From a virus (Duplodnaviria > Caudoviricetes): a DNA stretch of 64,000 nucleotides. Where the stretch lies: IMG/VR virus record IMGVR_UViG_3300049792_000048, positions 96,001-160,000 of that record; one strand, 5' to 3'. Both the position numbers and the translations under genes were made by a program. Under the pieces are notes generated by a model, which did not search any database, was not told the origin of the DNA, and worked only from the letters and a program-made list of their open reading frames with translations. Below are positions 2,832 to 32,451 of this stretch, piece by piece (positions within the stretch are counted from its first letter, which is position 1; each line of letters opens with the position of its first letter).

Positions 2832-3635
2832 ATGAACCTCGAAGCAAACACCTGGCACACGACTTCGGCTGAGCAGCTCACGCAGCTCGGCAAGACGGCA
2901 GCGCAGACTGCGGAGACGTCGGGCATGTCCCTGACGGATGCCGCAGTTCGCTCGATCGGCATGACGAAGCTCAACGAGCAGCAGATTCGTCGCGTCGTCG
3001 AAGCGGCAAATCACGAGGCCTTCCACCGGAAGTTCGCTTCCATGGATCCGTCCATGCGAGTGGTCGAGCTCGATGGTGGTCCCGCCGACGCGAGTGCGGT
3101 GATCGAGCGGCTCAAGGCTGCCTCGGCACCGGCACGTCCGCGGAGCATGTCGGAGTACTCGATGGAGCCCACCCGCAAGACGGCAGCCGTTTCGCAGTCG
3201 GGTGTCCACGACGTCTCCGAGAAGCGGGCTGCCCTCGCCGACATCAGTGAGCTGCGTGAGCAGCTCCAGGCCACGCACATCGACCTCGCCGAACGAGTCA
3301 GCGTGAGCAGCTACTACATCACCGAGGACGTTCAGAAGCTGGCGGCCATGGTGAAGAGTGCTTGCCTCGATGGAGCGTTCTTCGAGGACTTCGAGCGGGC
3401 CTGGGGAAGCATCAGCCCCAAGCACGCCACCGAGCTCCTCTCGGCGCTCAACCCCACCCGTGCACCCCACGGCGTGAAGACGGCAAGCCGGGTGATCTCG
3501 GAAGGTCACCCGATCCGCTCGACGTTCGATGCGTTCGTGAAGCATGCTCACGACTACGAGGTCGCCTGTGAGGCCCTTCGTGAGGTCGAGGGTGAGCTCG
3601 TCCGCGTTTCGGACTTCCTGCGGAGCAATCGATGA
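2832..3635 (+). CDS. Putative prohead core/scaffold protein (K-x-A rich)
   Basis: First gene of virion operon, AGGAG RBS; 10 of 11 Lys are in K-x-A. Confidence 0.6.
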   Translation: MNLEANTWHTTSAEQLTQLGKTAAQTAETSGMSLTDAAVRSIGMTKLNEQQIRRVVEAANHEAFHRKFASMDPSMRVVELDGGPADASAVIERLKAASAPARPRSMSEYSMEPTRKTAAVSQSGVHDVSEKRAALADISELREQLQATHIDLAERVSVSSYYITEDVQKLAAMVKSACLDGAFFEDFERAWGSISPKHATELLSALNPTRAPHGVKTASRVISEGHPIRSTFDAFVKHAHDYEVACEALREVEGELVRVSDFLRSNR

Positions 3636-3970
3636 ACCCCATCACGCTTCTGAAGCTGGCAGGTCTTGCTGAGGCTGCGAAGACCGTCGGCAAAGCCACG
3701 GGCAAGGTCTTCCAGGCTTCAGGAAGCGTGGGCGGGGCCATCGGGCGAAACCTCGGCTCGGAGGCGATCGGCAAGACGGTGGGCTATGCAGCTCCCGTTC
3801 TGATCGCCAACCATGCTGCCAACCAGTACGCTCCCACACGTCGTGGTAAGGCGTGGCTCGGACAGCAGATGGGTGCGGCAGGCAATGCCGTCGGATCTGC
3901 CCTCGTCCCAAGGGACTTTGGGGCTCGGCCGGGTGACTTCGGCGGTGGCGGTGGAGGAGGGTATTACTGA
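3632..3970 (+). CDS. Small Gly/Ala-rich virion-module protein
   Basis: ATGA coupling; N-terminal LKLAG; Gly-rich hydrophobic segment. Confidence 0.55.
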   Translation: MNPITLLKLAGLAEAAKTVGKATGKVFQASGSVGGAIGRNLGSEAIGKTVGYAAPVLIANHAANQYAPTRRGKAWLGQQMGAAGNAVGSALVPRDFGARPGDFGGGGGGGYY

Positions 3971-4587
3971 TGTTGATCTCCAAGCATGCGGTCGCACGTG
4001 AGTACGTCGGTGTCGTCGCGAAGACGGCCTCTCTCATGGGTCCTGGTGACCTTCATGCGTTGAAGGGCCTGGGGCACACGATGATGGAGGTCGCTCCGAT
4101 CGCCGTTCCGCTCGCCGCGCTCGCAGCTCAAGGCATCGGCGCCGTCATCTCGAAGATGACCGAGGCTTCACGCAAGGCGGGGGCCTACAAGACGATGATG
4201 GACCAGAACCCGCACCTCGCGGACAAGCCGTCCGAGGACGTGCAGCGGTACTTCAACACGCTCCATCGCCTGAACCCGGAGCTCGCGGGGGACCCCACGG
4301 TCGCGGCGAGCTTCGTGAACAACATGGTTCAGATGAACAACCCGATGAACCCGCACGCCGCGCTGTTCGAGCAGGCTCGTCAACTCAGCGCCCTCAAGCG
4401 CCCCGAGCCGGGTCACTTCGGCAAGGATCTCAGCGACGTCGTCCTTCGCATGGGCGATGCCTCCAAGAAGGACAAGTCGGAAGGCCTGCGCCACGACCTA
4501 GGCGTCCAGCAGCGGTACAACCGCATGCTCAAGAGCCACGTCCAGAAGATGCGTCGTGGCGCTGCCCACGCTCCCGAAACGACCTGA
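3970..4587 (+). CDS. Virion-module protein with one hydrophobic segment
   Basis: TGATG coupling; KHA and KTAS near N-terminus; IAVPLAALAAQGIGAVI segment. Confidence 0.6.
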   Translation: MLISKHAVAREYVGVVAKTASLMGPGDLHALKGLGHTMMEVAPIAVPLAALAAQGIGAVISKMTEASRKAGAYKTMMDQNPHLADKPSEDVQRYFNTLHRLNPELAGDPTVAASFVNNMVQMNNPMNPHAALFEQARQLSALKRPEPGHFGKDLSDVVLRMGDASKKDKSEGLRHDLGVQQRYNRMLKSHVQKMRRGAAHAPETT

Positions 4588-4590
4588 CCC

Positions 4591-6396
4591 ATGATGCTGA
4601 AGCGTGCGTTCTCGTCGGCTGAAGGCGAGCCGCCGGTTCATCTCATCGAGGCCGGGCACATGACGAAAGTCGCCGGCGCGCTTCCGCTCGTCGAGGACTT
4701 CATCTCGCGTCTGCGTCCAGACCCCAAGTACATGTTCACTCACGTGAACGCCATGGGGTACTCGGAGTACTACGGGCCGAACTCGAACGTCGACTACTAC
4801 GGGTACAACCCACACCTCGACTTCAACGGTCTGCTGCACGCTCCCGAGACGTGTCATCTGCACGGCGAATACGAGAACTGGGAGACCGATCCCGTCGTAC
4901 AGGCTCGCATCGCGAAGAGCTGGCCATTCGGTTACCCCAGCTACTACGGCGCGACGGTCTACGCCCACCACAAGAACTCGGACCCCACCTCGTTGGGCTT
5001 CGGGGATGTCGTGTTCGTCGCCCGCAACGAGGCACAGAAGCGCATCGAGCTCGTGATGCGAGTCGATGTCGACCTCGCCATGCAACGTGGTCACTCTGCG
5101 ATTCTTGATAGGATCGGACGAGGCGATCGAGTCGATGTCTCGATGGGCTGCAAGGTCCCCTTCGACTTCTGCTCGATCTGCACCGACTGGGAGGCCGTAA
5201 AGAAGGCCCAGAAGGGCTACGACCCCAAGCGCCACGCCAGCCCAGGTGTCGCCATCCTGGTGTATCACCGGACCGTGAAGCCCATCCGTGGGCTCGCCAT
5301 TACGAAGGCTGACTACTGCGACCACATGGTCAAGCAGCGTGGGCAGGTACTGGACGATGGCCAGAAGGTCTTCGTCTACAACGACTATCCACGCTTCTTC
5401 GACATCAGCTTCGTGTGGATCGGAGCTGACCGCACCGCACGCGTGATGTTCTTCATGGGTGCGAATGGCAGCCGGCCCGGGGAACGTCAGCGTCCTCAGA
5501 GTATCGGTGAGCTCGTGAAGGGGGCTTCGGACATGTCGAAGACAGCCAGTGAGAAGGCGGAACCTGGAACCCTTCTCACCCGAGACCGCCTCCGGAAAAT
5601 GAAGAAGATGGCAATGGAGAAGGAGATCCCTGGAGGCATCACACGCAAGGTCGAGCTCTGCGCCAACTCCGAGATGGATATCCCGTTCGGAGAGCTGGCC
5701 TCCTTCTCGAAGGAGGTGGGGGCAAAGACCCTGCTCTCTACGCTCGCTGGTCTGGGCATAATGCTCAAGCCGAACGAGTTCCATGGCGTCGTCGGCACCG
5801 AGCACCCGCTTCACGCGAAGGTCGCCGCGATGGCTGCCGAGCACAACATGACGTTCAGGACATCGCTGCCTGGATACGAGACTGGCTATGCCGTGGACCC
5901 CGCCCTCTTCTCGCCCAAGTTGGCGGAGAAGCTCATGCCTTACGTCGAGCACCGCTCTTCGTTTGCCCCGCATCTTCACTACCGGCTCGGCACGATGGCG
6001 AAGACGGCTTCGGCCCCTCTTCCACAGCTACTTGATGCCGTGTTCGTTCATGATGTCGCGGCTCTTTACAATGGGTATCGGGCCTCGCTCCTGAAGCAGG
6101 CTGAGCACCTGATGCCGAAGTACCACGAGGTGTCTCCACCCGACTTCGAGCAGTTGACGAAGACAGCCTCGCTGGCGGGTCTTCTCCTGTCTTCATCCAC
6201 CGTGGTACATTGGATTTCGGCTCACCTCGAAAAGGTGGCAGAGGTCGAAGAGGAACTTGGTGCTGCTGTGAAGTACGTGATGACAAGCCCCAACTACCGT
6301 AAGCTCAGTGCTCTCGGTGACGAGGTTTGCGCCACGATGAATCGGAGCACCAACTTCATCTCCGGGCTCCGGAACGCGGTGCAGATCGCACTGTAA
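4591..6396 (+). CDS. Putative prohead (maturation) protease, HK97/assemblin-like fold with Zn finger
   Basis: YAHHKN (His), DVSMGC (Ser), CSIC...YCDH, FFDISFVWIGAD; lies upstream of scaffold and capsid genes. Confidence 0.72.
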   Translation: MMLKRAFSSAEGEPPVHLIEAGHMTKVAGALPLVEDFISRLRPDPKYMFTHVNAMGYSEYYGPNSNVDYYGYNPHLDFNGLLHAPETCHLHGEYENWETDPVVQARIAKSWPFGYPSYYGATVYAHHKNSDPTSLGFGDVVFVARNEAQKRIELVMRVDVDLAMQRGHSAILDRIGRGDRVDVSMGCKVPFDFCSICTDWEAVKKAQKGYDPKRHASPGVAILVYHRTVKPIRGLAITKADYCDHMVKQRGQVLDDGQKVFVYNDYPRFFDISFVWIGADRTARVMFFMGANGSRPGERQRPQSIGELVKGASDMSKTASEKAEPGTLLTRDRLRKMKKMAMEKEIPGGITRKVELCANSEMDIPFGELASFSKEVGAKTLLSTLAGLGIMLKPNEFHGVVGTEHPLHAKVAAMAAEHNMTFRTSLPGYETGYAVDPALFSPKLAEKLMPYVEHRSSFAPHLHYRLGTMAKTASAPLPQLLDAVFVHDVAALYNGYRASLLKQAEHLMPKYHEVSPPDFEQLTKTASLAGLLLSSSTVVHWISAHLEKVAEVEEELGAAVKYVMTSPNYRKLSALGDEVCATMNRSTNFISGLRNAVQIAL

Positions 6397-6464: not shown

Positions 6465-7319
6465 ATGATGGACTTCGAGACGAAGATCGCAGCGGCGGGT
6501 GATGCTCTGATGAAGCTGGCGGCGGACCGCGGCCTCACTCTGAACGACTTCACGGAACAGGAGTCGATGGACCTCCTGGAGATGCTCATGGGCGAGCAGA
6601 ACAAGACCGCAGGAGAGGTCACGCCTGCGGCAGCGGCTCCGGCAGCCGTGACTCCTCCGGCGCAGGGCGCGGAGCCGACGGACAAGACGGCGAACGAGCA
6701 GCCGCAGCTCGACTACGGCATGGTGATGGCCGAGGTCGTGAAGGTCGCCGCGGCGAACAAGTTCGACCTGACGACGGCATCGCCCGCGGAGCTCAACGAC
6801 GCCGTCCAGAAGATGGCGGCGCTCATGAGCGACCCCACCTACGCGACGAAGCAGGCCGCGTTCCAGGAGAAGCTTGCAGAGGCCGACGCGATCGGCCGCG
6901 TGATGGCTCACTCCTACGTCGACGAGCTCTCGAAGATCGCCGAGTCGAACAAGGTCGCCAGCAAGACCGAGGACGAGAAGCGCGAGGAAGAGAAGAACGA
7001 GAAGAAGGCCGCGTTCGTTCGCGAGCTCCGCGCGAAGACCGCGGGCGAGATGCCCGAGGCCTTCAAGAAGCACATGAAGGGCAAGGGCAACGAGGACGAC
7101 AAGGGTGGCAAGGGCGACGAGAAGAGCGAAGACGACAAGAAGAAGGAAGAGGCCGAGAAGAAGGCTTCCTTCGCCAAGATCGCCGAGCTCCGTGCCGCGC
7201 AGATCCTCATCGAGAACGGTGTCAACCCGGCCACGAGCGAGAAGTTCGCTTCCGCCGACGAGCAGGTCGACGCTGCGGCTCTCAACCTCCTCGCGCAGAA
7301 GGGCTACAAGGTCGGCTGA
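6465..7319 (+). CDS. Putative scaffolding/core protein
   Basis: GAGGT RBS before ATG 6465; helical, charged, 15 K-x-A motifs. Confidence 0.65.
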   Translation: MMDFETKIAAAGDALMKLAADRGLTLNDFTEQESMDLLEMLMGEQNKTAGEVTPAAAAPAAVTPPAQGAEPTDKTANEQPQLDYGMVMAEVVKVAAANKFDLTTASPAELNDAVQKMAALMSDPTYATKQAAFQEKLAEADAIGRVMAHSYVDELSKIAESNKVASKTEDEKREEEKNEKKAAFVRELRAKTAGEMPEAFKKHMKGKGNEDDKGGKGDEKSEDDKKKEEAEKKASFAKIAELRAAQILIENGVNPATSEKFASADEQVDAAALNLLAQKGYKVG

Positions 7320-7337
7320 GCCGGCACCTGAGCACAC

Positions 7338-7574
7338 GTGATGAGCACCCACCCCAACTTGATGTTCGACAGCTTCCTGAAGACGGCGTCCACCGCCTCT
7401 GTCAGGCCAGCTTCGTCGTACGCCTCGTCGGGGATGGGTGACGCATCACAGAAGCTCAAGGTGACGAATGCGCCCAGCAAGTCGCAGTGGTCGTCACCGA
7501 ACCCGTCTCAGGCAACCCCCAACCAAAGCCCGTTCGCGGCTCAGAAGAACGCACCGCCTCCGCCGGTGCAGTGA
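7338..7574 (+). CDS. Small low-complexity head-module protein
   Basis: Fills operon gap; FLKTAS motif; Ser/Pro-rich. Confidence 0.5.
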   Translation: MMSTHPNLMFDSFLKTASTASVRPASSYASSGMGDASQKLKVTNAPSKSQWSSPNPSQATPNQSPFAAQKNAPPPPVQ

Positions 7575-7584: not shown

Positions 7585-8487
7585 ATGCGAAAGCTCAGTG
7601 CACTGGTGAATACCGCACTCGAATCCGCGAGCGAGAAGATCGCCTCGACGGTCGATGCGAGCGCAGCGGAAGCCGTGAAGGCTGCCGAGGCCGAGAAGCG
7701 TGCCGCGGCGGCTGCTGCCGTTCCGGTCCGCACGAAGGAGGCCGAGAAGCGCGCAAGCGTGATCACCACGGCAGCCGAGGCCGTCAAGGTCGCCGAGGTG
7801 CTGGAGCATCTCGCGGTCGTGATGCCCAAGCTCGCCGAGATGGGCACGAACCGCGGTGGTGGCAGCACGAACGTGCAGGACCGCACCGGCCCCGAGATCC
7901 TCACGTCGCCCGACAAGGGCGTGACGAAGGACACGATGACGTCGGCCTCGTCGATCCCGGCGCAGCGTGCGCATTCGGGCGGTGGCCCCGGCCACGGCAT
8001 GCACATCGAGACGAACAAGAACGACGCGCCCTGGAGCAAGTCCAAGAGCGCGGCCGAGGAGATCCTCACGGCGAAGATCGCACAGAGCAATGCTCTGCTC
8101 GCGGTCGGTCGTGCGAAGGAGGCCACGGAGCTCGCGAACACGGCTCGCACCGAGTTCGAGACCGCCAAGAAGGCGTACGAGGAGGAGGATGCCTCCACCA
8201 AGACGCCGCACGGCAACCCGAAGTCGCTGGCGACGAACCGCAACCAGGGCGACCTCCCGGTCCCCACGGGTCCGGTCCGTGACAACGCGGGCATGATCTC
8301 GATGACCAAGCGCGACGCCAAGACGAAGGACGTCCGCGCCGAGGCAGGCAAGCACGTCTCGGAGACCGCTCTCTCGGCGAAGACCGACAAGGGTCTCTCC
8401 GACAACCTCGACCACATCGAGGGGGCGAAGATCGCTTCCATCCTCGACACCGCGGCAGCGCGAAAGGCGGCGGCCACGGCCGCCTGA
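7585..8487 (+). CDS. Putative core/scaffold protein
   Basis: GAGGA RBS; Ala-rich; many K-x-A motifs (KIAS, KRAS, KVAE, KLAE, KIAQ). Confidence 0.6.
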   Translation: MRKLSALVNTALESASEKIASTVDASAAEAVKAAEAEKRAAAAAAVPVRTKEAEKRASVITTAAEAVKVAEVLEHLAVVMPKLAEMGTNRGGGSTNVQDRTGPEILTSPDKGVTKDTMTSASSIPAQRAHSGGGPGHGMHIETNKNDAPWSKSKSAAEEILTAKIAQSNALLAVGRAKEATELANTARTEFETAKKAYEEEDASTKTPHGNPKSLATNRNQGDLPVPTGPVRDNAGMISMTKRDAKTKDVRAEAGKHVSETALSAKTDKGLSDNLDHIEGAKIASILDTAAARKAAATAA

Positions 8488-8499: not shown

Positions 8500-8904
8500 A
8501 TGGACCTCATCAAGCTCGCTTCGGATTCGCCTGCCGTCCTTCTCGAAGGCGCCAAGACGATCCGCAAGCTCGCGTCGGACAACGTGGAGCTCCAGGCCGA
8601 CAAGATGGCTGCGCTCCACCAGCTCCACATCCACAAGCTCGCGATGCTGATGCACGAGCGCGGCCTGGAGCCCGCTCTGTCGCTGTCGGAGAAGGTCGCG
8701 CATCTGAGTTCGGTCGAGCCCTCGAAGCTCGATGCGATCGAAGCCGCCGTCGAGATGAGCGCGGGCGGCTTCAAGCTGGCGACGCTTCGCACCGACGAGG
8801 AGACCTCGTCTTCGCACGGTGCGGGGCCGACGACGTTGTCCGGGGAGCTCGGTTCCTCGGCGAACTACGACCGACTGGACGCGCTCGTCCAGGCGATCGG
8901 CTGA
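8500..8904 (+). CDS. Putative small scaffolding protein
   Basis: GGGAG RBS; 6 of 8 Lys in K-x-A; two genes before capsid gene. Confidence 0.6.
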   Translation: MDLIKLASDSPAVLLEGAKTIRKLASDNVELQADKMAALHQLHIHKLAMLMHERGLEPALSLSEKVAHLSSVEPSKLDAIEAAVEMSAGGFKLATLRTDEETSSSHGAGPTTLSGELGSSANYDRLDALVQAIG

Positions 8905-9459: not shown

Positions 9460-10572
9460 ATGCTGCACGATGCAAAGGAGCTGACCCTTCAGCACCTCTC
9501 GAACCCCGACGCGAAGACCAAGCTCGCGGCGGAGGTCGGGGGCTACATCCGAGACCGGCTGCGCGAGGCGTCGTTCCTGGAGCGGGTCCTCCCGCCCCAG
9601 ACCGTCACGCGCAGCGACTGCCAGATCTCGGTCAACCACGACTCGCTCGTGAAGATCGAGCACCTGGAGCCGCGTTCGCGCGCCATGGTGGTCACCTTCC
9701 GTGGCGAGCCGTCCGCCCGTCTCCTCCGCGGTGAGCGCGTCGAGGTGCCGTTCATCACCATCATGAGCGAGATGTACCAGAAGCCGGAGCAGGAGTTCCT
9801 GGCCTACCCGTACCCGCTCGGGAAGGTCGTCGAGCAGAACTCGATCCGCGACATCGGCGAGATCCAGGACCGTCAGTTCCTGATCTACTCCGAGGCCGCG
9901 GTGCAGGCCCTCCAGACCGAGGCGAACGGCACGACGACGTCGCTCAATGCGACGGCGCTCCAGAGCTCCACGCCCCCGGTGGAGTTCTCGGTCATCAAGG
10001 GCGAGCTCGCGCGTGCGGTCTCGACGAACGACGCGATCGTTCGTCCGATCCAGCGCCCGGACATCGTCAACCTGATGAAGCTCCTCGATGGCAACCGCCT
10101 CGAATGCGAGCTCATCCTCATCACGAGCAAGGATCTCGACGACGTCCTCCAGTGGACGATCGAGGACCAGGGCTCGAAGGTGCAGAGCGAGACCACCGTC
10201 CAGGGCTGGCAGTTCAACACCCTCCTCGGCAAGAAGCTGATCCGGACCATCAAGACGGACATCCTCCGTCCGGGCAACGTGTATGCGTACACGTCGCCGG
10301 AGTTCCTGGGTCGCTTCTACATCCTGAACAACGTCAAGTTCTACATCGACAAGGTGATCAACCTGATCAAGTTCGTCGCGTGGAAGGACGTCGGGATGAG
10401 CATCGTCAACGTCGCGTCGGTGCGCAAGCTGGAGCTCTACTCCGGCGACGCGACGTCGCTGAACGCCGACTCGGTTCTCGCGTCGGTCTCGCCGAAGGTC
10501 GAGGAAGATCTCGGGGCGCCGAACAACCGCGCCGCGGATCGCACGTTCTTCCCGGGCGTCGTCTCCTTCTGA
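9460..10572 (+). CDS. Major capsid protein (probable HK97 fold)
   Basis: 370 aa, strong RBS, very strong C/G codon bias, position after protease/scaffold/decoration genes, followed by hairpins; single K-x-A at residues 21-23. Confidence 0.8.
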   Translation: MLHDAKELTLQHLSNPDAKTKLAAEVGGYIRDRLREASFLERVLPPQTVTRSDCQISVNHDSLVKIEHLEPRSRAMVVTFRGEPSARLLRGERVEVPFITIMSEMYQKPEQEFLAYPYPLGKVVEQNSIRDIGEIQDRQFLIYSEAAVQALQTEANGTTTSLNATALQSSTPPVEFSVIKGELARAVSTNDAIVRPIQRPDIVNLMKLLDGNRLECELILITSKDLDDVLQWTIEDQGSKVQSETTVQGWQFNTLLGKKLIRTIKTDILRPGNVYAYTSPEFLGRFYILNNVKFYIDKVINLIKFVAWKDVGMSIVNVASVRKLELYSGDATSLNADSVLASVSPKVEEDLGAPNNRAADRTFFPGVVSF

Positions 10573-10676: not shown

Positions 10677-11711
10677 ATGGACAAGATCGTGTATCTGTAT
10701 GGCTCGGGTCGCGACGCGGAAACGCGTGTGCTCCGTCATGCCACCAAGCCCCGCCAGATGGTGATTCGCCTCGGCCCGTGGACCGTACGTCCCGCCCGTC
10801 GCATCGCCGTCGAGTTCCCTCGGCTCGCTCCTCACAAGGACGAGCTGCTCCACAAGATCTCGCAGGGGATCCTCCAGCTCCAGAGTGGCGACGGCGTCGT
10901 CTACTCGATCGTGGAGCTCAACGCGGCGTTCGCGGAGCTCGTCGGTACACCCGACGCTCCCAACTACGAGACGATGCCGTACGCCCAGCTCATGGGGCTG
11001 ATGCGCACGGAGAAGCCGACGCAGGAAGCGTGGGAAGCCTTCGTCTCTCGCTCCATCGCAGACTCCCTCACGGAGTCCGATCCGGAGATGCCGAGCACCA
11101 TCACGCGGATTCGGGGACTCATGTCCTACTCGCCGCGTGTCGCTGAGCTCGGGGTCGACATCACGGCAACGGACATCGTCCTCGCGAGCGCCCTCGCCAA
11201 GGCGGAGGCCAGCAAGGAGGCCGAGCAAGCAGAAGCCGACGCAGCTCGTGCTGAAGAGGCACGTGTCGCGGACGAGGCTGCTCGCATCGCTGCGGCCCAG
11301 GAAGCTGCCCGTGTCGAGGAAGCTGCTCGTGTCGAGAAGGAGAAGGTCGATACGCTTCTTCCGCCGAGCGACGCTCAGGCCGACGAGCCCACGCACGACG
11401 ATGGTGCGCCTCCGCCGTCGGATGCGGATGCTCCCCACGACGAGATCGGCACCCCGTCCGAGGTGAGTCCGGAGCAGATGGACTTCTCGGCCGAGGAGAC
11501 CAACACGGAGCCCGTCGTCGAAGAGACGAAGAGTGAAGAGGTCGTGGTCGAGAAGTCGGCCGATTCGCAGCGCACCCTCCCCGAGGGCTGGCGCGGCGCC
11601 ACCAACAAGGACCTGAAGGATCTCATCGCCAAGACGGGCGCCAAGATGCCCGAGCAGGTCAGCAAGGCGAACCTCATCTCGGCTCTGGAGGAGTGGTTGG
11701 GAGGTAACTGA
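10677..11711 (+). CDS. Post-capsid protein with acidic linker and C-terminal HeH/Rho-N-like domain
   Basis: GAGGA RBS; C-terminus TNKDLKDLIAKTGAKMPEQVSKANLISAL; EAARV-type repeats. Confidence 0.6.
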   Translation: MDKIVYLYGSGRDAETRVLRHATKPRQMVIRLGPWTVRPARRIAVEFPRLAPHKDELLHKISQGILQLQSGDGVVYSIVELNAAFAELVGTPDAPNYETMPYAQLMGLMRTEKPTQEAWEAFVSRSIADSLTESDPEMPSTITRIRGLMSYSPRVAELGVDITATDIVLASALAKAEASKEAEQAEADAARAEEARVADEAARIAAAQEAARVEEAARVEKEKVDTLLPPSDAQADEPTHDDGAPPPSDADAPHDEIGTPSEVSPEQMDFSAEETNTEPVVEETKSEEVVVEKSADSQRTLPEGWRGATNKDLKDLIAKTGAKMPEQVSKANLISALEEWLGGN

Positions 11712-12220
11712 TGCCGTTCGTTCAGGGACTCGGGCAGCCGTTCGATCCGAGGGCTGTACTCCGAGGGCACATCGAAGCAGTGCGCATGTTCATGCGTGAC
11801 TTCGGCGAGCTCAACCTCCTCATCCGTGGGGAGGAGAGCTCCGACCGAATGATCATCTGGGCGACGCAGGACTTCTTGTCCGACTTCAATGGGACGCCAC
11901 CCTTCACGGGGTACGCCCTGAACGAGCTCGCATCACGAGGACTCCAGAACCTGTCGGTCCGTGGAACGGTCATCACGCTGCTTCAGAGTGTGATGATCCT
12001 CCATGCCCGCAACTACCTGCCGTTCTCGGATGGTGGCTTGTCAGTGGCGATCAACGACAAGGCGCCTCTCATCCAGTCCATGCTTCAGCTCTTCCAGTCA
12101 GCGTACGAACAGCAGAAGCGCCAGGTCAAAACGGCGCTGAACATCGAACAACTCCTCGATCTTGGTCCGAGCGGGGTGCACTCGGATTATTTCGGGCTCG
12201 CGGCTCTTGGTTTCTGGTGA
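11711..12220 (+). CDS. Putative head-tail adaptor (neck) protein
   Basis: TGATG coupling; helical 169-aa protein downstream of capsid gene. Confidence 0.5.
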   Translation: MPFVQGLGQPFDPRAVLRGHIEAVRMFMRDFGELNLLIRGEESSDRMIIWATQDFLSDFNGTPPFTGYALNELASRGLQNLSVRGTVITLLQSVMILHARNYLPFSDGGLSVAINDKAPLIQSMLQLFQSAYEQQKRQVKTALNIEQLLDLGPSGVHSDYFGLAALGFW

Positions 12221-12225: not shown

Positions 12226-12711
12226 ATGTTGCCCGCACTACAGCTCATCGTGACCTGTACGAAGTGTCTTCGTGGGCTTCCTCGTACGCGGGAGTTCTTC
12301 CCTTCCCACAGCACAGCCAAAGATCGGATGGGGTCGTGGTGCTTGGTGTGTGCGAAAGAAGCAGGCCGTTCATGGAGAAGGAGACGCACCTGGGAGCAAA
12401 GATTGCTCAAAGCAGTGTTTGACCGACAGGTTCAGCGGTGGCCGGAAGAGGTGTTCGACCTGTCCATCCAAGTGCTCTCACAGATGCATGAGCATCAGAA
12501 TGGGCTCTGCCACTGGTATGGGGTTCCGTTCACCTACGAGACCAAATCTGGGCCCACCTTGATCTCAGTGGATCGCCTCGACAACAGTCGTGGCTACACG
12601 AAAGACAATGTGGTCCTTGCCTGCGACGCGGCGAACCGTGGTCGAAAGGACTACAGCCCCGAACAGTTCTCGCACTTCGTTGCCCAACTTCGGGCATCAA
12701 TGAGAGGATGA
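12226..12711 (+). CDS. HNH-like free-standing endonuclease
   Basis: CxxC...CxxC N-terminus; QNGLCHW...SVDRLDNSRGYTKDNVVLACDAAN; atypical codon usage. Confidence 0.75.
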   Translation: MLPALQLIVTCTKCLRGLPRTREFFPSHSTAKDRMGSWCLVCAKEAGRSWRRRRTWEQRLLKAVFDRQVQRWPEEVFDLSIQVLSQMHEHQNGLCHWYGVPFTYETKSGPTLISVDRLDNSRGYTKDNVVLACDAANRGRKDYSPEQFSHFVAQLRASMRG

Positions 12712-23076: not shown

Positions 23077-23727
23077 ATGAGCAACGTCCTCCCCATCGCT
23101 CGTCTCTGCACTGGTCCGTGTGGCCGGGAACTCCCGGCTACGCGTGAGTACTTCTATGCGGTGAAGACGGGGCAGTATGGTCTTGCAGCAGCCTGCAAGG
23201 AGTGCTCGAAGGCCCGCACACTTCAAGACCAACAGCGACGTCGTCAAGAAGACCCCGAAGGTACCAAGGCAAAGAACAACGCGAAGATGGAGCGCCATCG
23301 TCGCAAGAAGGGTGTCGCCCCCAAGCGCTACCTCACGGATGCGGAGAAGGCTGTTGCATCCCGCAAGTACAACGACGCCTACAACGCCCGCCCTGGCGTG
23401 TGGATGAAGTACTTGTTGACGCACGCCAAGATCCGAAATGACGCCCGTCACCCGGACACCACCTTCGATCTCGACATCACGTGGATCACCGAGCAGTTCA
23501 CGGCCCAGGAGGGCAAGTGCTTCTGGCTCAAGGTTCCGTTGCGCACCTCCCGAAACGCGGGTCCGTGGCAGGTCTCTCTTGATCGACTCGACCTCAAAGT
23601 CGGCTACACCAAGACCAACACCGTCCTGACGTCACGCGCAGCCAACCTGGGACGAAACTCCACCTCGCTCGAAGACTTCGAGCTGTTCCTCAATGACCTC
23701 CAAGCTGCCATGATGAGGACCACATGA
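23077..23727 (+). CDS. HNH-like free-standing endonuclease
   Basis: CTGPC...CKEC; QEGKCFW...SLDRLDLKVGYTKTNTVL..RAAN. Confidence 0.75.
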   Translation: MSNVLPIARLCTGPCGRELPATREYFYAVKTGQYGLAAACKECSKARTLQDQQRRRQEDPEGTKAKNNAKMERHRRKKGVAPKRYLTDAEKAVASRKYNDAYNARPGVWMKYLLTHAKIRNDARHPDTTFDLDITWITEQFTAQEGKCFWLKVPLRTSRNAGPWQVSLDRLDLKVGYTKTNTVLTSRAANLGRNSTSLEDFELFLNDLQAAMMRTT

Positions 23728-24113
23728 CCGAACGAGACATCTACAACCCGGGTTCGGAGCTCGACCATCGCCTGGAGAAGGTGATGGAGAGCCACCAGCC
23801 CGCAGCCAAGACGAGCTCGACCCCTGCCGTGGAGCAGGAGTCGGGCCTCCAGGCCTTCGTCCAGCGCGCCTCGATCTCCGAGGAGCTGGCGGCCATCGAC
23901 AGCTCGAAGTTCGCCACCGACCTCAACGTCGTGCGGGCAAGCGAGCACATCGATCACATCATCGAGGAGAAGTCGGAACGCTTCGACTCCTTCCTCGACA
24001 CCCTGAAGACGGCCTCCAGCGAGATCACGGTGGTCGACCCCGTGAAGACTGCTCAGGAGCTCATTCGTCAGGGCGTCGATCCCCGTGAAGCCGCAAGGCG
24101 TGCGCTGGCGTGA
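23724..24113 (+). CDS. Hypothetical virion-module protein with K-x-A motifs
   Basis: GAGGA RBS; KTSS, KFAT, KTAS, KTAQ. Confidence 0.6.
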   Translation: MTERDIYNPGSELDHRLEKVMESHQPAAKTSSTPAVEQESGLQAFVQRASISEELAAIDSSKFATDLNVVRASEHIDHIIEEKSERFDSFLDTLKTASSEITVVDPVKTAQELIRQGVDPREAARRALA

Positions 24114-24169
24114 TGGGCACCGTCGCACACATCTTCGAGAAGGCTTCTGTCCCCGCTATCAGCGTGGAG

Positions 24170-24670
24170 ATGGAAACCCTTACGAAGAAGTGTTCGCGAT
24201 GTCGTGAACTCAAGTCACTGGATGACTTCCCGAAAGAGAAACGAAACCGGACAGGGCATGGCAACTACTGTAAGTCCTGTAAGTCAGTCCTCACAGGCGC
24301 ATACCACAAAGAGCGCCGAGCAACTGACTGGGCCTTCCGGCTTCTGGGCAATGCGCGGACCTCCACCTCTGGTGGTGGAAACAGGAAGTCTCAGATTCGT
24401 ACTCGACCCGAGTGGGCGAAGATGAACCTCACAGTGGAGTACCTTCGGGAGCTCTACAACATGCAGGATGGGAAGTGTGCGTACTTCAACATCTCGTTGC
24501 TGCTCGACGGAGGAATGGGCCTTCGATCGATCACGCTGGATCGGCTAGACTGTGACCGCGGGTACGTGCAGGGCAATGTTGTCCTCGCGAGTCGCGCAGC
24601 AAACCTGGCACGCGGAAACGCCAGCACGGACGACATGCACGTGCTCGTCGAGATGATCAAGAGGAGCTGA
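24170..24670 (+). CDS. HNH-like free-standing endonuclease
   Basis: CSRC...CKSC; QDGKCAY...TLDRLDCDRGYVQGNVVL..RAAN; start uncertain (24110 or 24170). Confidence 0.75.
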   Translation: METLTKKCSRCRELKSLDDFPKEKRNRTGHGNYCKSCKSVLTGAYHKERRATDWAFRLLGNARTSTSGGGNRKSQIRTRPEWAKMNLTVEYLRELYNMQDGKCAYFNISLLLDGGMGLRSITLDRLDCDRGYVQGNVVLASRAANLARGNASTDDMHVLVEMIKRS

Positions 24671-25457: not shown

Positions 25458-28400
25458 ATGCTCAAGACCCTCTCAGCCACTTCTGCTGAGACGCTGACCC
25501 GTACCCTGAACGGGTTGGTGCAGGGGAGGCGCAATCTTTCGCAGGGCATCGCCGTTGGTCCTACGGCCTCCGGTCTCTACAAGCACCCAGTCGCTGGCCT
25601 CACGCTGAACTTCAGCACACCGGTCGCGACGGTGACTTTCGTAGGTGACCTCGACCTCAAGCAGATCGTGGCGGCCATCAACTCCCAGGTCGGAGCGGTG
25701 GTTGCTCATCTCTATCAGCTCGAACGCAGCGGGACGTTCGTGTTGGCGTTGTGGGATGACGCCACTCCGGTGACGTTGCTGCACACTGGAACCGCCAACT
25801 CGTACTTCGGGTTCTCGACGACTGCGGATGACGCATCGTTGGTGCAGAGCCCCGTGGACTCTGACAACATCAAGAGCATCCGTGCCGACAACACAGGTGG
25901 CTATACCTGTGTCTTCGATGCGCAGGCCACGCCTTTCCTGGATCTCACGAAGGGGGATTTCTCTCGTCCACTTGCCGCATTCGGCCAGGTGGGCGCCTCG
26001 ACGGATGGCTTGATCGCTTTCCTGCGCCTGTTCGACGTCGACGAGCGCCGCATCGAGGACAGAGGCGATGGGTTCGGCCGCTGCCTCCTCATGGAGAAGG
26101 AGAGCACGAACAGGCTTCTTTTCAGTCGCGACATCACCAACGCCGTGGGCTGGGCACTTCCCGGGGCTGCGGCGGTCACTGGAAACGCAGGCACGTCGCC
26201 AGACGGCACTACCTCGGCGGATAGGGTCGTTGCTACCGGGTCCACCTTCTCACCTGGTCAGTCGTTGACTGGCCTCCTGGCGAACCCGCACACGCTCAGT
26301 GCGTACGGCCGGGCATTCTCAGGGACTACCGATTGGGAAACGAACTACGGGCCGTTCCCCTACACGGCATGGTCGGGCGTCATCACGACGATATGGGTCC
26401 GAAAGCGCGAGACCAAGGCAACGACGGGCGGAAATCTATACGCGGAAGATGGCACCCTAGCGGGAGGGCCGCCCCTGGCGACAGCGGGCGACGTCCTGGT
26501 CGATTTGTGGCAAGCAGAGGATGGCCCCTACGCCACATCTCCCATTCCCACGAATGGCGCGCCCGCTACACGCCCTCCTGATCGCTTCTCTCACGCGGAC
26601 GGCACGTACCCGCCTGGCTTCCTGACCGTTGGCTTCGATAGCCCACTCGTGTTTGGTGCATCGAGCGCGGAGCTGGATGAGAGCGGTGAGACGTGGGTCA
26701 TTGCTGGCAGCGCTTCGGGTGACACGCTCCATGTAATCGGTGTTGGAGGTGGTGCCTGCCAGTTCGTGCTCCGCACGGGCGGTGTAGACGAAGTGGTTGC
26801 TGGGCCATGCACGTGGTCGGCAGCGCAAGCGATCACCGTCATGACGCGCATCGGTGCAGGCGAGATCGAAATCTTGGGGGCCACGACCGGGAACGGCACG
26901 TACACCGGAGGCACAGGCACCGCATGGGCGTCTGGTAATCGCTTCTACGTCGGCGGCGACAGTGCCGGTGCGAACAACGTGGGTGAGCTCCGCTTCATCG
27001 GCGTGAAGATTGTGCAGACCGCAGCAACACCACTCCCCGCCAACAGCGTCGCACCCATCCTCTCTGGTGTCGTGAAGACGGGCAACTCGCTCACCATCAC
27101 ACCCGGTACGTGGACACGTACGCCACGCCTCACGTACGAGCTGCTAATGGGCTCGTCGACGCGGGTCGGGCCTGGAGCGACTCAGGCAGAGGTCGAGGCG
27201 TACGTTCTCGTCGTCGGCGATTCGTACCTGCCGTTCACCCTCATCGAGACGGCAGTCGTGGGCGCGACCTCGGTCACGTCGAATGCGCTCGGCTACCTCT
27301 ACGCAACGCCTACCGGAGTCACGCTCAAGGGCCAGTACGATGGCTCGCACTTCCACCTCACGCTCGCGGGTCGCATCGACAAGTGGCTTGATCAGGGCGG
27401 GCTCGGCAACGAGCTAGAACAGACGGATCCCGGCAACATGCCTGTGCCTGCTCCCGGTGCTGGACCGAACGGGCTGGACGCAATCGACTTCTCGACTTTC
27501 GCGGGTGCAGCGACGTTCGTGCTCAAGGCCAGCCTCGGGCTCGGTCCGCAAGTCACCGTGTTCACGCTCGTACAGACGCCAGGTCCGAATCGCTACGTGC
27601 ACGATGGCAACGTCGTGGACAGCCGAGTTCTGTTCTACTTGGCGGCTGGAAACGCGTACAACATCTACAACGGGCACGTCGTCCTGCCGATTCTGGAAAC
27701 GACAGGCGATTGGGTGGTAGACGCCGCGGTGTTCGACGGTGCTACGTCGAAGCATGCGCTGGATGCTGGACCCATCGGCACCGCCGACGCTGGTGGCAAC
27801 AACGATGCAGGCTTCTCGTACGGACGTGGCGACGGTGGGGCGAGCAACTGCCTCAACTCTCTTGCGTCGATCGCCGTTGTCTACGTTGGGGCCATGAGCG
27901 ACGCCGATCAGATCGACGTTCGCTACTACATGATGGGCCTTGGTCTTCTCCTTGGGGCCGAGCCGCCTCCTGTTGCTGGCTTCACTGTGTGGGCTCCTCC
28001 CGAGGGGATCTCGACCTCTGGCGGTAGCGTCGACAGCATCACGAACTTCGGCACTTCCAAGACTCCGTTCACTGCCACAGGCTCTGCTCGTCCTGGGACG
28101 ACAGTGATCGATGGCAAGACGGTCCCGTTGTATGACGGTGTGGACGATGTGATGGTTGGTCCGCCGACCAGCACGACGATTCAGGCGAACGCGTGGACCA
28201 TGGCGGTTGTGTTCCGGCCAGATGCACTCGGAACCGCCTACGGCTCTTACGAGAACGCGGTGCAGGTCATCTGTGATGACTCCGGTTACTGGGGTCCGTC
28301 GGCGGTAACGACCGACGGTGTTGCATCCGGCTTCTACGCAGGCGCCGACAAGCAGACCGATCCGGCTCCAGTCTCCGCAGGTGATGTCTACATCATGTTC

Positions 28401-29321
28401 TGCGTCTACGATGGCGCAGTGCTCAAGACCACGATCAACGGCGTGACGCATGTGCGAGCTGTTGCAGCATCCGTTGGCTACACCGGCGGGCACACACAGA
28501 TCGGGTACATGGGCCGCACCCTCTATCTCCAGGGTGCAGTCTGCGAGCCGATCGTCTACGACCGTGCTCTCACCAACGCTGAACTGGATGCGACGCAGGC
28601 ATACTTGCTCCAGCGTTGGCCGAGCGCTGTTGTCGCGCGTCCTGTGGCGCCACCAGTTGCAGGCTTCACACTCTGGACACCTCCGGAGGCACTCTCGGTC
28701 GCAGCCGGTGTCGTCGACTTCCAAGGCAACTTGGGGAGCGCAGGGGGCGCGTTCTCTGCACTCGGAGGGTTCTCAACCACCACGATCGACGGACACGTCG
28801 TCTCTCTGCTCGATGGTGTGGATGACACGTTGTCCGGCGGGCCAGCGGCGGTCTACGTCATCGATCCGGCTGGGCTTGCGTGGTCGATGTGGTGGGTCGT
28901 TCGAGCCGACGCGCTCATCGGGGCCGTGGGTCCGATCTACGACGGGGCGCAGATGCTCTCGGACATCGGCGGCAACTTCTCGCCCCTCGTCTTCGACGCG
29001 AATGGCGTGCGCACGGGATTCAATAGTCTCGCAACTGCACCCATCCCGATCTCCACCGGGGTCTTGTACCTCGCTCGCGTGACCTACGATGGTGCGACGC
29101 TATCTCTCACAATCAACGGCGTGACCGAAACGCTCTCCACATCTGCATCTGTATCCGGGCTCGGGTTCGCACTCGCTCAGCGCATGGGCGAGAACTACAA
29201 CGGCTCGGCGTTCTTCACGGGAGTGATCTGCGAGAGCGTCGGCTACCCGACGTATCTCTCGCCACCGAACCAGGCCCTCATCGATGCTTATTTCCGGGCA
29301 AAGTATCCCAGCGTAGTGTGA
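25458..29321 (+). CDS. Fibre/spike-like structural protein with tandem LamG/ConA-like modules
   Basis: 1287 aa, Gly/Thr-rich beta; two PPVAGFT.W.PPE...DGVDD...YDGA.L..TING repeats; N-terminal paralog of 12716..13195. Confidence 0.7.
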   Translation: MLKTLSATSAETLTRTLNGLVQGRRNLSQGIAVGPTASGLYKHPVAGLTLNFSTPVATVTFVGDLDLKQIVAAINSQVGAVVAHLYQLERSGTFVLALWDDATPVTLLHTGTANSYFGFSTTADDASLVQSPVDSDNIKSIRADNTGGYTCVFDAQATPFLDLTKGDFSRPLAAFGQVGASTDGLIAFLRLFDVDERRIEDRGDGFGRCLLMEKESTNRLLFSRDITNAVGWALPGAAAVTGNAGTSPDGTTSADRVVATGSTFSPGQSLTGLLANPHTLSAYGRAFSGTTDWETNYGPFPYTAWSGVITTIWVRKRETKATTGGNLYAEDGTLAGGPPLATAGDVLVDLWQAEDGPYATSPIPTNGAPATRPPDRFSHADGTYPPGFLTVGFDSPLVFGASSAELDESGETWVIAGSASGDTLHVIGVGGGACQFVLRTGGVDEVVAGPCTWSAAQAITVMTRIGAGEIEILGATTGNGTYTGGTGTAWASGNRFYVGGDSAGANNVGELRFIGVKIVQTAATPLPANSVAPILSGVVKTGNSLTITPGTWTRTPRLTYELLMGSSTRVGPGATQAEVEAYVLVVGDSYLPFTLIETAVVGATSVTSNALGYLYATPTGVTLKGQYDGSHFHLTLAGRIDKWLDQGGLGNELEQTDPGNMPVPAPGAGPNGLDAIDFSTFAGAATFVLKASLGLGPQVTVFTLVQTPGPNRYVHDGNVVDSRVLFYLAAGNAYNIYNGHVVLPILETTGDWVVDAAVFDGATSKHALDAGPIGTADAGGNNDAGFSYGRGDGGASNCLNSLASIAVVYVGAMSDADQIDVRYYMMGLGLLLGAEPPPVAGFTVWAPPEGISTSGGSVDSITNFGTSKTPFTATGSARPGTTVIDGKTVPLYDGVDDVMVGPPTSTTIQANAWTMAVVFRPDALGTAYGSYENAVQVICDDSGYWGPSAVTTDGVASGFYAGADKQTDPAPVSAGDVYIMFCVYDGAVLKTTINGVTHVRAVAASVGYTGGHTQIGYMGRTLYLQGAVCEPIVYDRALTNAELDATQAYLLQRWPSAVVARPVAPPVAGFTLWTPPEALSVAAGVVDFQGNLGSAGGAFSALGGFSTTTIDGHVVSLLDGVDDTLSGGPAAVYVIDPAGLAWSMWWVVRADALIGAVGPIYDGAQMLSDIGGNFSPLVFDANGVRTGFNSLATAPIPISTGVLYLARVTYDGATLSLTINGVTETLSTSASVSGLGFALAQRMGENYNGSAFFTGVICESVGYPTYLSPPNQALIDAYFRAKYPSVV

Positions 29322-29821: not shown

Positions 29822-29844
29822 CAAAGCAACATCAAGCTCAGAGC

Positions 29845-29868: not shown

Positions 29869-29924
29869 ACTCAATAGATTTCTCCATGCTTTGTGTTTGT
29901 GCGACCAAGAGCAAGGCTCTTTCC

Positions 29925-29947
29925 CCTACGTTTTTGATAGGTGATTT
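29925..29947 (-). promoter_or_regulatory. Recurrent phage promoter-like motif
   Basis: Minus strand AAATCACCTATCAAAAACGTAGG. Confidence 0.45.
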
Positions 29948-30000
29948 CAGGTAAATCTTGGGGGCAAAAAGAAGACGAACTGAGTTCATCTTCTCTCACA

Positions 30001-30528: not shown

Positions 30529-30540
30529 GATGTGTCTCCT

Positions 30541-30562
30541 TCACTTCGCTGATAGGTCGAAA
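30541..30562 (-). promoter_or_regulatory. Recurrent phage promoter-like motif
   Basis: Minus strand TTTCGACCTATCAGCGAAGTGA then AGGAG. Confidence 0.55.
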
Positions 30563-30579
30563 TGCGCTAGGATCGCGAC

Positions 30580-32451
30580 ATGCCCTTCCAGAGCAAGGCA
30601 CAGCAACGCAAGTTCTTCGCGATGGAAGCGGAGGGGAAGCTTCCCAAGGGGACTGCGATCGCTTGGGCTCATGAAACCAAGGACATCAAGGCGCTGCCGG
30701 AGAAGGTCGGCTGTGGAGACATGATCCAGTACTTCCACGACCACCCCGACAAGCTCCGCGAGAAGAAAGAACGGGACCGGAAGAAGGAGTCGAACTTCAA
30801 GTTGCACGGTGAGCGGGAGTTCCGCGGTCTCGACATCGCGATCGAGAACAAGAAGGGGACGAAGCGCTCCTGGTACGATCCGCACGGCAAGGAGAAGGGG
30901 TCAACCTTCATGCACTACGACTATGGTTACATCCGGCTCACTGAGGGCACGGATGGGGACCACGTCGATGTGTATATCGGGCCGTGGGGAGATGCGCCGG
31001 ACGTCTTCATCATCGACCAGATGAAGAAGCCCGATGGGGAGATCAAGAAGGACGGCGTCGCCTGGACGAAGTTCGATGAGCAGAAGGTAATGCTCGGCTT
31101 CAAGGACGAGGCGACGGCAAAGGCTGCATACCTCAAGCAGTACAACGACCCTCGGTTCTTCGGCTCGATCAAGGCCATGAACTTCGAGGAGTTCAAGATG
31201 AAGGTGTTGGACAAGGACAATCACGGTCAGAAGATCGCACTCGCGATCTCACCGACAGCGATCAGCCACCTCGGCCATGCCGGAGTGGGTGCAGGCATCG
31301 GCGCCGTCGCCGGCGGTCTCGGTGGCATGATGCACGCCGATGCAGGCCAGCGTCAGCAGGGAGCCCTCCGTGGAGCTCTTGTTGGAGCTGGGCTTGGTGC
31401 CGCCGGCGGCGCAGGCATCTCTGCGCTCAAGACGCAGGGGGCTCACCAGCTCAACACGCTCCGAGCTCAGGCAGGTTCGGCGGAGCTCGCAGCTCGTGAA
31501 GCCCACCAGGTCGCCGGCAAGACGATCGCAGACCCAGCTCTGGCGGGCACCATGCATGCTGGAGCTCCGGCAGCTCTCGGACGCAGCACAGCCGCGGCTC
31601 GTCCCGGTGTCGCCGGCGGAGCAGGTGGTGGGGGCGGCCTCGCTCTCAACACCCAGCAGAAGCAGGTCATGTCCCCCACGGCCTGGGGTGGCTCCTCTGC
31701 GTCCATGAAGCCCGAGCTCGCTCAGTCGATCGCTGCTTCCCGTGGCGGCCAGGCAGAGGCACTGAGGCGGGCAGCAGGGACCCTCGAACAGCAGCACGCC
31801 GCGATGAACAAGGGGCTGAACCGTGCCGGCCTCGTCGGGGCTGCCGCGGGCACCGGCTTGATGGGGTACATGGCGGTGCCTCACCAGTACGGTGGCGTCA
31901 GTCCGGGCAAGCAGGCCTCGGAAGATCCCCGCACCTCACGCATCGCAGATCGCATCGACGACGTCGGCATCGCGACGCTCGCCTCACCCTATCTCGCTGA
32001 TGCTGCCGCCGGCGGCCTGAAGCGTCTGATGCTTCGAGGCGGTCGGATGGGAGCTCTCGCTGCGGAAGGCCACACCATCGCCGAAGGGCTCGCACATCAT
32101 CTTCATCATCCTGCGGTCGAGCTCGGTGGTCTAGGGCTCGTCGCTCCGGGCATCACGCACTCGCTCGCTCGTCCGTTGGCACAGGCGACCGCCCCGAAGC
32201 TCTCGCCACCGATCCAGAAAGTCGCCGCCGAGCTCGGGAGGGCCTTGGCCAACCCGGACCACCAGATCAAGCACAGTGGCTACGGCCGCCTCGCACTGGG
32301 TCTCGGTGCAGTAGGCGCCGTCGGTGCCGGCCTGATCGGGGCAAAGAAAGGGGTGGATGCCGTCCAGCATCTGGCGACCGCTACACCTCAACCCATTCGG
32401 TACGCTGGCGTCCAGCCAGGAATGCGTCCGCCGGCACCGGCGGGAATGTAA
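30580..32451 (+). CDS. Multimodular head protein: MPFxSKAQ leader, inorganic-pyrophosphatase-like domain, glycine-zipper peptides
   Basis: IAIENKKG..R...MHYDYGYIRLTEGTDGDHVDVYIGP...FDEQKVMLGF; GxxxG segments bounded by KIA, KQAS, KVAA, KHSG. Confidence 0.7.
   Translation: MPFQSKAQQRKFFAMEAEGKLPKGTAIAWAHETKDIKALPEKVGCGDMIQYFHDHPDKLREKKERDRKKESNFKLHGEREFRGLDIAIENKKGTKRSWYDPHGKEKGSTFMHYDYGYIRLTEGTDGDHVDVYIGPWGDAPDVFIIDQMKKPDGEIKKDGVAWTKFDEQKVMLGFKDEATAKAAYLKQYNDPRFFGSIKAMNFEEFKMKVLDKDNHGQKIALAISPTAISHLGHAGVGAGIGAVAGGLGGMMHADAGQRQQGALRGALVGAGLGAAGGAGISALKTQGAHQLNTLRAQAGSAELAAREAHQVAGKTIADPALAGTMHAGAPAALGRSTAAARPGVAGGAGGGGGLALNTQQKQVMSPTAWGGSSASMKPELAQSIAASRGGQAEALRRAAGTLEQQHAAMNKGLNRAGLVGAAAGTGLMGYMAVPHQYGGVSPGKQASEDPRTSRIADRIDDVGIATLASPYLADAAAGGLKRLMLRGGRMGALAAEGHTIAEGLAHHLHHPAVELGGLGLVAPGITHSLARPLAQATAPKLSPPIQKVAAELGRALANPDHQIKHSGYGRLALGLGAVGAVGAGLIGAKKGVDAVQHLATATPQPIRYAGVQPGMRPPAPAGM

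Follow-up and report, generated by a model that had tools for sequence, protein, structure and literature searches.

The prohead protease gp21 of phage T4 acts on gp22, gp23, gp24, gp67, gp68, IPI-III and Alt, with capsid-targeting leaders among the elements that it removes. Its motif, (L/I)-x-E, is a tripeptide of the a-x-b type that saturates the protease as well as the scaffold and core proteins, is found a single time near the N-terminus of the capsid protein and ends short leaders. We describe here the same arrangement built on a different tripeptide, Lys-x-Ala (K-x-A), in a stretch of 64,000 nucleotides from a virus of the Caudoviricetes (IMG/VR record IMGVR_UViG_3300049792_000048). This stretch, the window, comprises bases 96001-160000 of one 195,774-bp contig (G+C 60%), and a plus-strand virion module fills its left half. 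The original prediction was that a protease encoded at 4591..6396 uses a K-x-A specificity to shred scaffolds, trim propeptides and release enzymes and membrane peptides inside the head. From motif statistics, their conservation in the clade and the fold of the protease, all of it computational evidence, we consider it likely that K-x-A, in an extended form, is the substrate recognition motif of this candidate prohead protease.

Other described systems are also close to this locus. In the large phages phiKZ and SPN3US, the proteases gp175 and gp245 process numerous head and ejection proteins at a brief consensus from which substrates can be predicted (PMC10052503). Cleavage by these enzymes follows a Glu (S/A/G-x-E), their phages form a different lineage and their substrates have been mapped by mass spectrometry, whereas the motif described here is known computationally. 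Herpesvirus assemblins (UL26/UL80) share with the locus a predicted Ala|Ser pair and a layout of protease domain, disordered linker with sites and helical C-terminal region with further sites; they differ in having a hydrophobic P4/P3 and a polar P2 rather than a Lys at P3, and in their two defined sites, R and M, where the locus has dozens. Finally, gp4 of HK97 belongs to the same fold superfamily and Lys stands at the reported maturation site of gp5, but there the cut follows the Lys and takes off a delta domain of 103 residues with which the capsid protein is fused. We know of no K-x-A consensus for the HK97 protease, and gp4 was not among the structural or sequence matches of 4591.

K-x-A enrichment in the head module and its relatives

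Whole-genome gene calling gave 262 proteins, and the K-x-A content of each was compared with 2000 composition-preserving shuffles (genes are designated by their first coordinate in the window unless genome coordinates are stated). Six proteins of the window are significantly rich in the motif. Ten of the 11 lysines of 2832..3635 lie in K-x-A, with 1.6 expected (p < 0.0005), as do six of the eight in 8500..8904 (1.15 expected, p = 0.0005). The count reaches 16 in 6465..7319 (6.0 expected; one overlapping KKA/KAA pair is included), 12 in 4591..6396 (3.6 expected), 13 in 7585..8487 (5.3 expected) and three in 23724..24113 (0.7 expected, p = 0.017). The figures originally counted by eye for 2832, 8500 and 6465 were correct or off by one, 15 having been given for 6465. 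Many more copies had also been announced in 4591, 7585, 13201, 15703, 23724 and 30580; this holds for 4591, 7585 and 23724, whereas 13201 (9 versus 8.1), 15703 (5 versus 3.0) and 30580 (4 versus 7.2) are not above chance as whole proteins. The same is true of 3632, 3970 and 7338, although several of these six nonenriched proteins still bear one high-scoring conserved N-terminal site. As had been expected, the tail proteins largely lack the motif: the sheath (19942..23043; PHROG 2839/279) has two copies versus 2.3, the tube-like gene 24673 has none and the 1287-aa fibre-like protein (25458..29321) has one versus 2.1, all at or below the shuffle expectation.

Across the genome, eight of the 262 proteins are enriched (p < 0.01 or near), with 83 motifs versus 24.1 expected; the other 254 together hold 256 versus 259.2. 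The two enriched proteins that lie outside the window are encoded at genome positions 71543..72847 (11 versus 2.7) and 90350..92437 (12 versus 3.2, with the strong sites clustered at residues 527-600). Neither has a family match, except for a weak DUF6582 match in the former.

A blind scan of all 400 a-x-b residue pairs at positions i and i+2, with within-protein composition as the null, ranks K-x-A first in this head module (62 versus 21, z = 9.0), and no Glu-ending pair of the T4/phiKZ type is among its top three of the 400. When T4 gp67, gp68, gp21 and gp22 are used as a positive control, the top two pairs are I-x-E and L-x-E, which is the motif established for gp21. Of 77 related metagenomic loci (protease 31-93% identical to 4591), about 70 likewise have K-x-A in first place, and so do two cultured phages with a protease about 28% identical, Arash (z = 5.4) and Vibrio D181 (z = 6.0). 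In phage G it is in excess in gp19 (8 versus 2.4) and gp21 (7 versus 2.8). The motif thus accompanies this protease family even between phages that are very distant from each other.

When 67 distinct head modules are pooled, K-x-A occurs at 2.27x and K-xx-S at 1.98x expectation, compared with 0.85x for R-x-A, 0.89x for A-x-K, 0.80x for K-A and 0.86x for K-xxxx-A. The signal is therefore directional and Lys-specific and is not helical periodicity. Helix periodicity and composition were rejected as its cause, since the shuffles keep composition, no comparable periodicity is seen at i+3/i+4 and the reverse pattern is depleted. The Ser and Gly forms that had been proposed as variants are not enriched overall: over the 67 head modules K-x-S stands at 0.93x and K-x-G at 0.72x, and we rejected K-x-[SG] as a general variant. 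Distant orthologues of 8500 carry K-x-S in place of K-x-A at one aligned site. A DNA-level motif was also rejected: all 57 copies of AAR-NNN-GCN in the five richest genes are in frame, and they use 26 different middle codons and all four Ala codons.

About 3000 sites define the extended motif [D/E]-[D/E]-[L/M/F]-[E/V/T]-K-[T/L/V/I]-A-[S/A]-A, with acidic residues at -4 and -3, L/M/F at -2, E/V/T at -1 and, after the Lys, T/L/V/I, the Ala, S/A (also E) and a further Ala. The flanks carry information from -4 to +4 relative to the Lys, with peaks on either side of the Ala and background at +5. Pro, Gly and Trp are excluded between Lys and Ala, and Ile, Val and Leu are nearly excluded after the Ala (-2.3 to -3.3 bits). 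We scored the flanks alone with a matrix trained on relatives with a protease at most 70% identical. The mean flank score of K-x-A sites is +0.96 in the structural genes of the window compared with -2.54 in its nonstructural genes (34-64 kb), and 26 structural sites score at least 3 versus one nonstructural site. Many K-x-A positions are conserved within divergent flanks, while other sites turn over with the overall density kept.

Two occurrences of the tripeptide stand apart. The 169-aa head-module protein 11711..12220 keeps a single K-x-A (K140-T-A-L) across 52 orthologues with a poor flank score; as Leu follows the Ala, this is probably a structural residue pair rather than a site. The GyrB-type topoisomerase subunit encoded on the minus strand (330..2282; Pfam DNA_gyraseB, Toprim and HATPase_c) begins M-KTA-S-KTA-Y, with two tandem copies of the motif that may be due to chance, given their low flank score (0.9).

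The candidate protease 4591..6396

The 601-aa product of 4591..6396 (plus strand) is a candidate prohead protease by its fold, its residues His127 and Ser184 and its synteny. The full-length AlphaFold model comprises a confidently predicted N-domain (residues 29-291 approximately; nucleotides 4675-5463), a disordered linker (residues 293-348) and a helical C-terminal region. In a VIA fold search of 48,161 chains with the full model, T4 gp21 (5jbl_A) comes first (Z = 8.0) and the varicella-zoster virus (VZV) protease second. Modelled alone, the domain has a predicted local distance difference test score (pLDDT) of 83 and a predicted template modelling score of 0.80; against the same chains T4 gp21 is again at the top (Z = 7.9, root-mean-square deviation 3.3, 132 of 165 residues aligned), followed by the VZV protease at 5.3, with rank 50 at 2.2. 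Herpesvirus assemblins are thus the second-best structural matches (Z = 5.3-7.3 for VZV), and those of human cytomegalovirus and herpes simplex virus top the Foldseek lists. The N-domain therefore models as a T4 gp21/assemblin fold (MEROPS clan SH: S77, S78 and S21).

His127 (in YAHH) and Ser184 (in DVSMGC) are invariant in alignments of 38 and 32 sequences, and their spacing of 57 residues compares with 55 between H85 and S140 of gp21. The two proteins otherwise differ: there is no detectable sequence similarity, and gp21 has 212 aa and lacks both the 300-aa helical C-terminal extension and the Cys-rich insert of 4591. In this insert, just after Ser184, Cys194-x-x-Cys197 and Cys243 are near-invariant and His residues are close by (residues 194-246; nucleotides 5170..5330), a pattern that suggests possible metal binding. 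About 20 homologues bear inteins exactly at DVSMG|C or just after it, and essential, conserved motifs are the typical homing sites of inteins. Such an element, 355-385 aa long and with a homing-endonuclease domain, is present in about one-fifth of the protease homologues listed (915-1023 aa). It either follows DVSMG directly, preceding the Cys, or follows KVPFDLC; the protease of the window has no intein.

The K-x-A sites of the protease lie at its N-terminus (K4 and K26), in the linker (K310, K317 and K339) and in the C-terminal region (K471, K524 and K548). K4 is kept in 34, K26 in 33 and K471 in 29 of 38 sequences. Segments with pLDDT below 50 (residues 1-28, 293-348 and 471-476) contain or border the strongest of these K-x-A sites, which are plausible autoprocessing sites as far as the model goes. 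By analogy with UL26, the C-terminal region would be a putative scaffold-like tail. An internal translation start before MEKEIPGG was considered and rejected, as it is preceded by no convincing ribosome-binding site. No other protease gene was found in the head module by Pfam and PHROG searches.

More than 640 metagenomic homologues of the protease are found, many on contigs of 150-197 kb, and IMG/VR holds 80 loci with a protease 31-93% identical to it. Its cultured relatives are all distant (25-28% identity): Vibrio phages D181, D148 and D69, Salmonella phage Arash (gp222) and Bacillus phage G (gp19). Phage G gp19, Arash gp222 and D181 VPHD181_0277 match at E-values of 6e-9 to 2e-21 and are true distant homologues in syntenic head modules with a K-x-A excess, albeit shorter (300-491 aa versus 601 aa). 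In the window the protease gene is followed by the scaffold-like genes 6465, 7585 and 8500 and then by the capsid gene 9460; Arash, D181 and phage G keep this head-module order. Matches to Arash and/or phage G extend to the capsid and portal proteins. Phage G gp19 has been annotated as a head maturation protease (bioRxiv 10.1101/2024.12.16.628780); in the literature covered we found no report of the cleavage specificity of this protein, Arash gp222 or the D181 protease.

Sites in scaffold-like proteins, the capsid protein and leaders

All of the genes described in this section up to the capsid gene, and those with leaders, are on the plus strand. The 267-aa head-module protein 2832 is probably a scaffold or core protein. 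Its K21, K175 and K216 are kept in 54, 48 and 55 of 60 orthologues, respectively, at a flank identity of 0.24-0.31, and 62 orthologues together contain 595 K-x-A versus 156 expected. The scaffold-like protein 6465 (284 aa) is rich in Ala, Glu and Lys; ten of its 16 sites have a flank score of at least 2, and K17, K136 and K260 are kept in 26-27 of 29 orthologues. In the second scaffold-like protein, 7585, K18 and K82 are kept in 11 of 11 orthologues and K164 in ten. In the 134-aa head protein 8500, K46 is kept in all 22 orthologues, which carry 126 K-x-A versus 24.3 expected. The 129-aa protein 23724, encoded among the tail genes, has two well scoring sites (K95-T-A|S, 3.6; K108-T-A, 3.3); no orthologue was present in the related loci fetched.

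The major capsid protein (9460..10572; PHROG 2522 major head protein, E-value 1e-8) contains exactly one K-x-A, K21-L-A23 (nucleotides 9520-9528), as originally noted. A K-[LIVM]-A at this position is kept in nearly all of about 60 orthologues, and the sequence predicts a 23-residue propeptide, compared with 65 residues in T4 gp23. The mature protein would accordingly begin at Ala24 (AEVGG...), or at Leu22 if the cut came after Lys21. The mature part of the protein is depleted in the motif (55 versus 77, or 0.71x, over 58 orthologues), with no site scoring at least 3.

We defined a leader site as one with a flank score of at least 2 within the first 40 residues. Such sites occur in ten of 27 proteins of the structural block compared with six of 235 others (Fisher p = 1.3e-7). 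As in T4, these leaders are short, end in the motif and are found on several otherwise unrelated head proteins, and orthologues keep the leader site in the case of 3970, 7338, 7585 and 13201. The small Gly-rich protein 3632..3970 has a 10-residue leader ending K8-L-A (flank score 2.6). In 3970..4587 (205 aa) the leader ends K18-T-A|S (3.4), and K-x-A is present at this position in 31 of 38 orthologues despite a flank identity of 0.11. The leader of 7338..7574 (78 aa) ends K15-T-A|S (5.2; kept in seven of seven orthologues) and that of 15703..16635 (310 aa) ends K16-L-A|S (3.8; four of eight orthologues). A possible leader in 16632..17384 (250 aa), ending K10-A-A (2.4), is weakly supported, with two orthologues only. 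Short leaders had been claimed for six small genes; 3632, 3970, 7338 and 15703 bear this out, whereas 18622 has only a K-L-G variant and the KTA of 18303 scores below zero, because it is followed by Ile, which is strongly disfavoured after the Ala.

Two larger proteins had been thought to carry the motif at module boundaries. The 830-aa virion-module protein 13201..15693 consists of a leader ending K33-M-A, a ferritin-like domain (Pfam Ferritin PF00210, E-value 1e-11; nucleotides 13360..13760) and a low-complexity and Gly-rich hydrophobic C-terminal part. Its leader site, the only firmly conserved one, is present in 19 of 21 orthologues, which range from 430 to 1074 aa. The internal boundaries fare less well: K225 (ten of 21) and K394 (16 of 21) lie in unalignable linkers where the alignment may anchor on the Lys and Ala themselves, and all internal sites score below 2. 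The other protein, 30580, has an InPase domain (Pfam PF18823, E-value 1e-34; nucleotides 30780..31210) and, like 13201, ends in a Gly-rich hydrophobic segment. With K-x-A below its expectation and no site scoring at least 2, it offers no credible site and is not supported as a polyprotein delimited by the motif. The idea that enzymes and membrane peptides are released inside the head is speculation.

The remaining genes of the window are mostly without a family match in Pfam or PHROGs. The structural operon is interrupted by three small paralogous genes, 12226..12711, 23077..23727 and 24110..24670. Their products have in common a Cys-rich N-terminus and the block LDRLD..GY...N.VL...AN..R at the C-terminal end, without a Pfam match at E < 0.01, and one of the genes shows atypical codon usage. 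They look like insertions of the homing-endonuclease type. The 159-aa protein 12716..13195 and the first 150 residues or so of the fibre-like protein (25458..25900) are clear paralogues, with blocks LYKHPVAGLTL and the YFGFSTT region in common, that is, a duplicated N-terminal attachment domain. Outside the head module, the portal homologue (genome 75914..77872) matches phage G gp14, and a 2065-aa protein (genome 82452..88649) resembles an Arash gene annotated as an RNA polymerase beta subunit as well as large genes of Vibrio phage D181; this likeness suggests that the clade encodes an RNA polymerase of the multisubunit type.

Proposed processing, probable cut position and rival explanations

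The best reading of these data is that K-x-A is a prohead-protease cleavage and leader code, a variant of the T4/phiKZ scheme. What stands of the proposed K-x-A-specific head protease is a code concentrated in three places, namely the scaffold-like and internal proteins of the head, the protease and the N-terminus of the capsid protein, beside a protein that models with a gp21/assemblin fold; the K-x-S/G variants and the 30580 polyprotein do not. Catalysis, the place of the cut, targeting and what becomes of the products are inferred. The protease would co-assemble with the scaffold-like proteins 2832, 6465, 7585 and 8500 inside the procapsid and free itself at K26 and at the linker sites K310, K317 and K339. 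It would then cut the scaffold-like proteins to peptides of 10-30 residues able to leave the shell, remove the 23-residue propeptide from the capsid protein and trim the 8-35-residue N-terminal leaders of the internal proteins 3632, 3970, 7338, 13201 and 15703. As in T4, the leaders would probably also be capsid-targeting signals.

By analogy, the scissile bond most likely follows the Ala, with Lys at P3, T/L/V/I at P2, Ala at P1 and Ser/Ala at P1'. This position is favoured because the flank information profile around the Ala fits P7-P2' recognition, because the a-x-b motifs of T4 and phiKZ are cut after b and herpesvirus assemblins cut Ala|Ser, and because the residue that follows behaves as a P1' residue, being small and never beta-branched. 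A cut after the Lys, with Lys at P1, is unlikely in our estimation. It could be made by 4591, in the manner of the reported HK97 cut at Lys|Ser, or by another trypsin-like enzyme of host or phage, and would agree with the Lys being the most informative residue, for which Arg is no substitute (R-x-A at 0.85x), and with the cut of HK97 gp5 after Lys103. However, it needs prime-side recognition as far as P4' (information at +1 to +4), which is unusual for assemblin-fold enzymes, as these read P4-P1'; it also departs from the T4 and phiKZ precedent and lacks a second protease gene in the head module.

It is about equally improbable that K-x-A is an uncut binding or targeting motif, a repeated contact that would attach the scaffold, the C-terminal region of the protease and the leaders to the inside of the capsid or to one another. 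The motif is indeed concentrated in proteins that must co-assemble and in N-terminal leaders, and the evidence consists of motif statistics and fold. Nevertheless, up to 16 copies in 284 aa and the gain and loss of sites among orthologues at a kept density suit degradation sites better than a docking interface. Moreover, the strong sites of the protease lie in disordered linkers, the small P1/P1'-type residues and the exclusion of beta-branched ones after the Ala resemble protease subsites, and a real cleavage motif, in the T4 control, yields the same signature. In a further alternative, which we regard as highly improbable and for which the controls leave little room, K-x-A has no link to proteolysis and arises from composition or secondary structure (Ala/Lys-rich helices) or marks Lys for modification. 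The richest proteins are rich in Ala, Lys and Glu and probably helical, and the T4 core proteins themselves show a mild K-x-A excess (12 versus 7.0). Against this, composition is kept in the shuffles, no i+3/i+4 periodicity is comparable to that at i+2 and A-x-K is depleted; the flank preferences are specific, sites are conserved inside divergent flanks, the signal is confined to eight of 262 proteins and no modifying enzyme was identified.

Several points weigh against recognition and cleavage of K-x-A by 4591. The protease has no sequence match to Pfam S77, S78 or S21 (E-values up to 10), to PHROGs or to PDB chains, for which the profile search gave spurious matches only, and it is therefore filed under the gp21/assemblin fold by structure only. 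A Z-score of about 8 is only moderately high, and the Foldseek lists, although headed by herpesvirus proteases, have weak E-values (0.1-0.8). The choice between a cut after Ala and a cut after Lys rests on analogy and the information profile. Natural ends of open reading frames are uninformative, since those of the head module end in K-x-A no more often than others. The intein control within the same reading frame is weak (1.43x in inteins versus 2.77x in the C-terminal region of the protease), the control inteins being one related family with conserved K-x-A-containing blocks. Orthologues share descent, so that the pooled counts are not independent events. As to published data, the Arash paper reports a virion proteome without processing analysis, its supplement being a feature table without peptide lists, and the phage G papers used fully tryptic searches and contain no cleavage data. 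With incomplete coverage of the literature, we found no published description of a K-x-A-type specificity for a phage prohead protease.

We may tentatively go further, to a broader scenario that we hold to be possible but less probable than its negation. A divergent gp21-fold protease of a very large, mostly uncultured lineage (this clade, Arash, the Vibrio D181-like phages and phage G) might have switched from the Glu code of T4/phiKZ to a herpesvirus-like Ala|Ser bond with Lys at P3, with a protease, linker and scaffold-like tail arranged as in UL26. The motif and the short leaders would then form a 'load into capsid, then cut' code that predicts packaged, and probably ejected, proteins (the ferritin-like domain, Gly-rich hydrophobic peptides and others).

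Since the short motif, the shredded scaffold and the cleavable leaders are established from T4 and phiKZ, the K-x-A code would be an extension of that scheme and not a new principle. If true, it would nevertheless define a third specificity class of phage prohead proteases, beside HK97 and the Glu-specific enzymes of T4 and phiKZ. This class would resemble the Ala|Ser bond of herpesviruses and bear on the evolution of specificity within the assemblin fold. If the code is real, mature termini, the turnover of scaffolds and candidates for packaging could be predicted in hundreds of uncultured phages of 170-200 kb, and likewise in Arash, the Vibrio D181-like phages and phage G, where the majority of head genes are 'hypothetical'.

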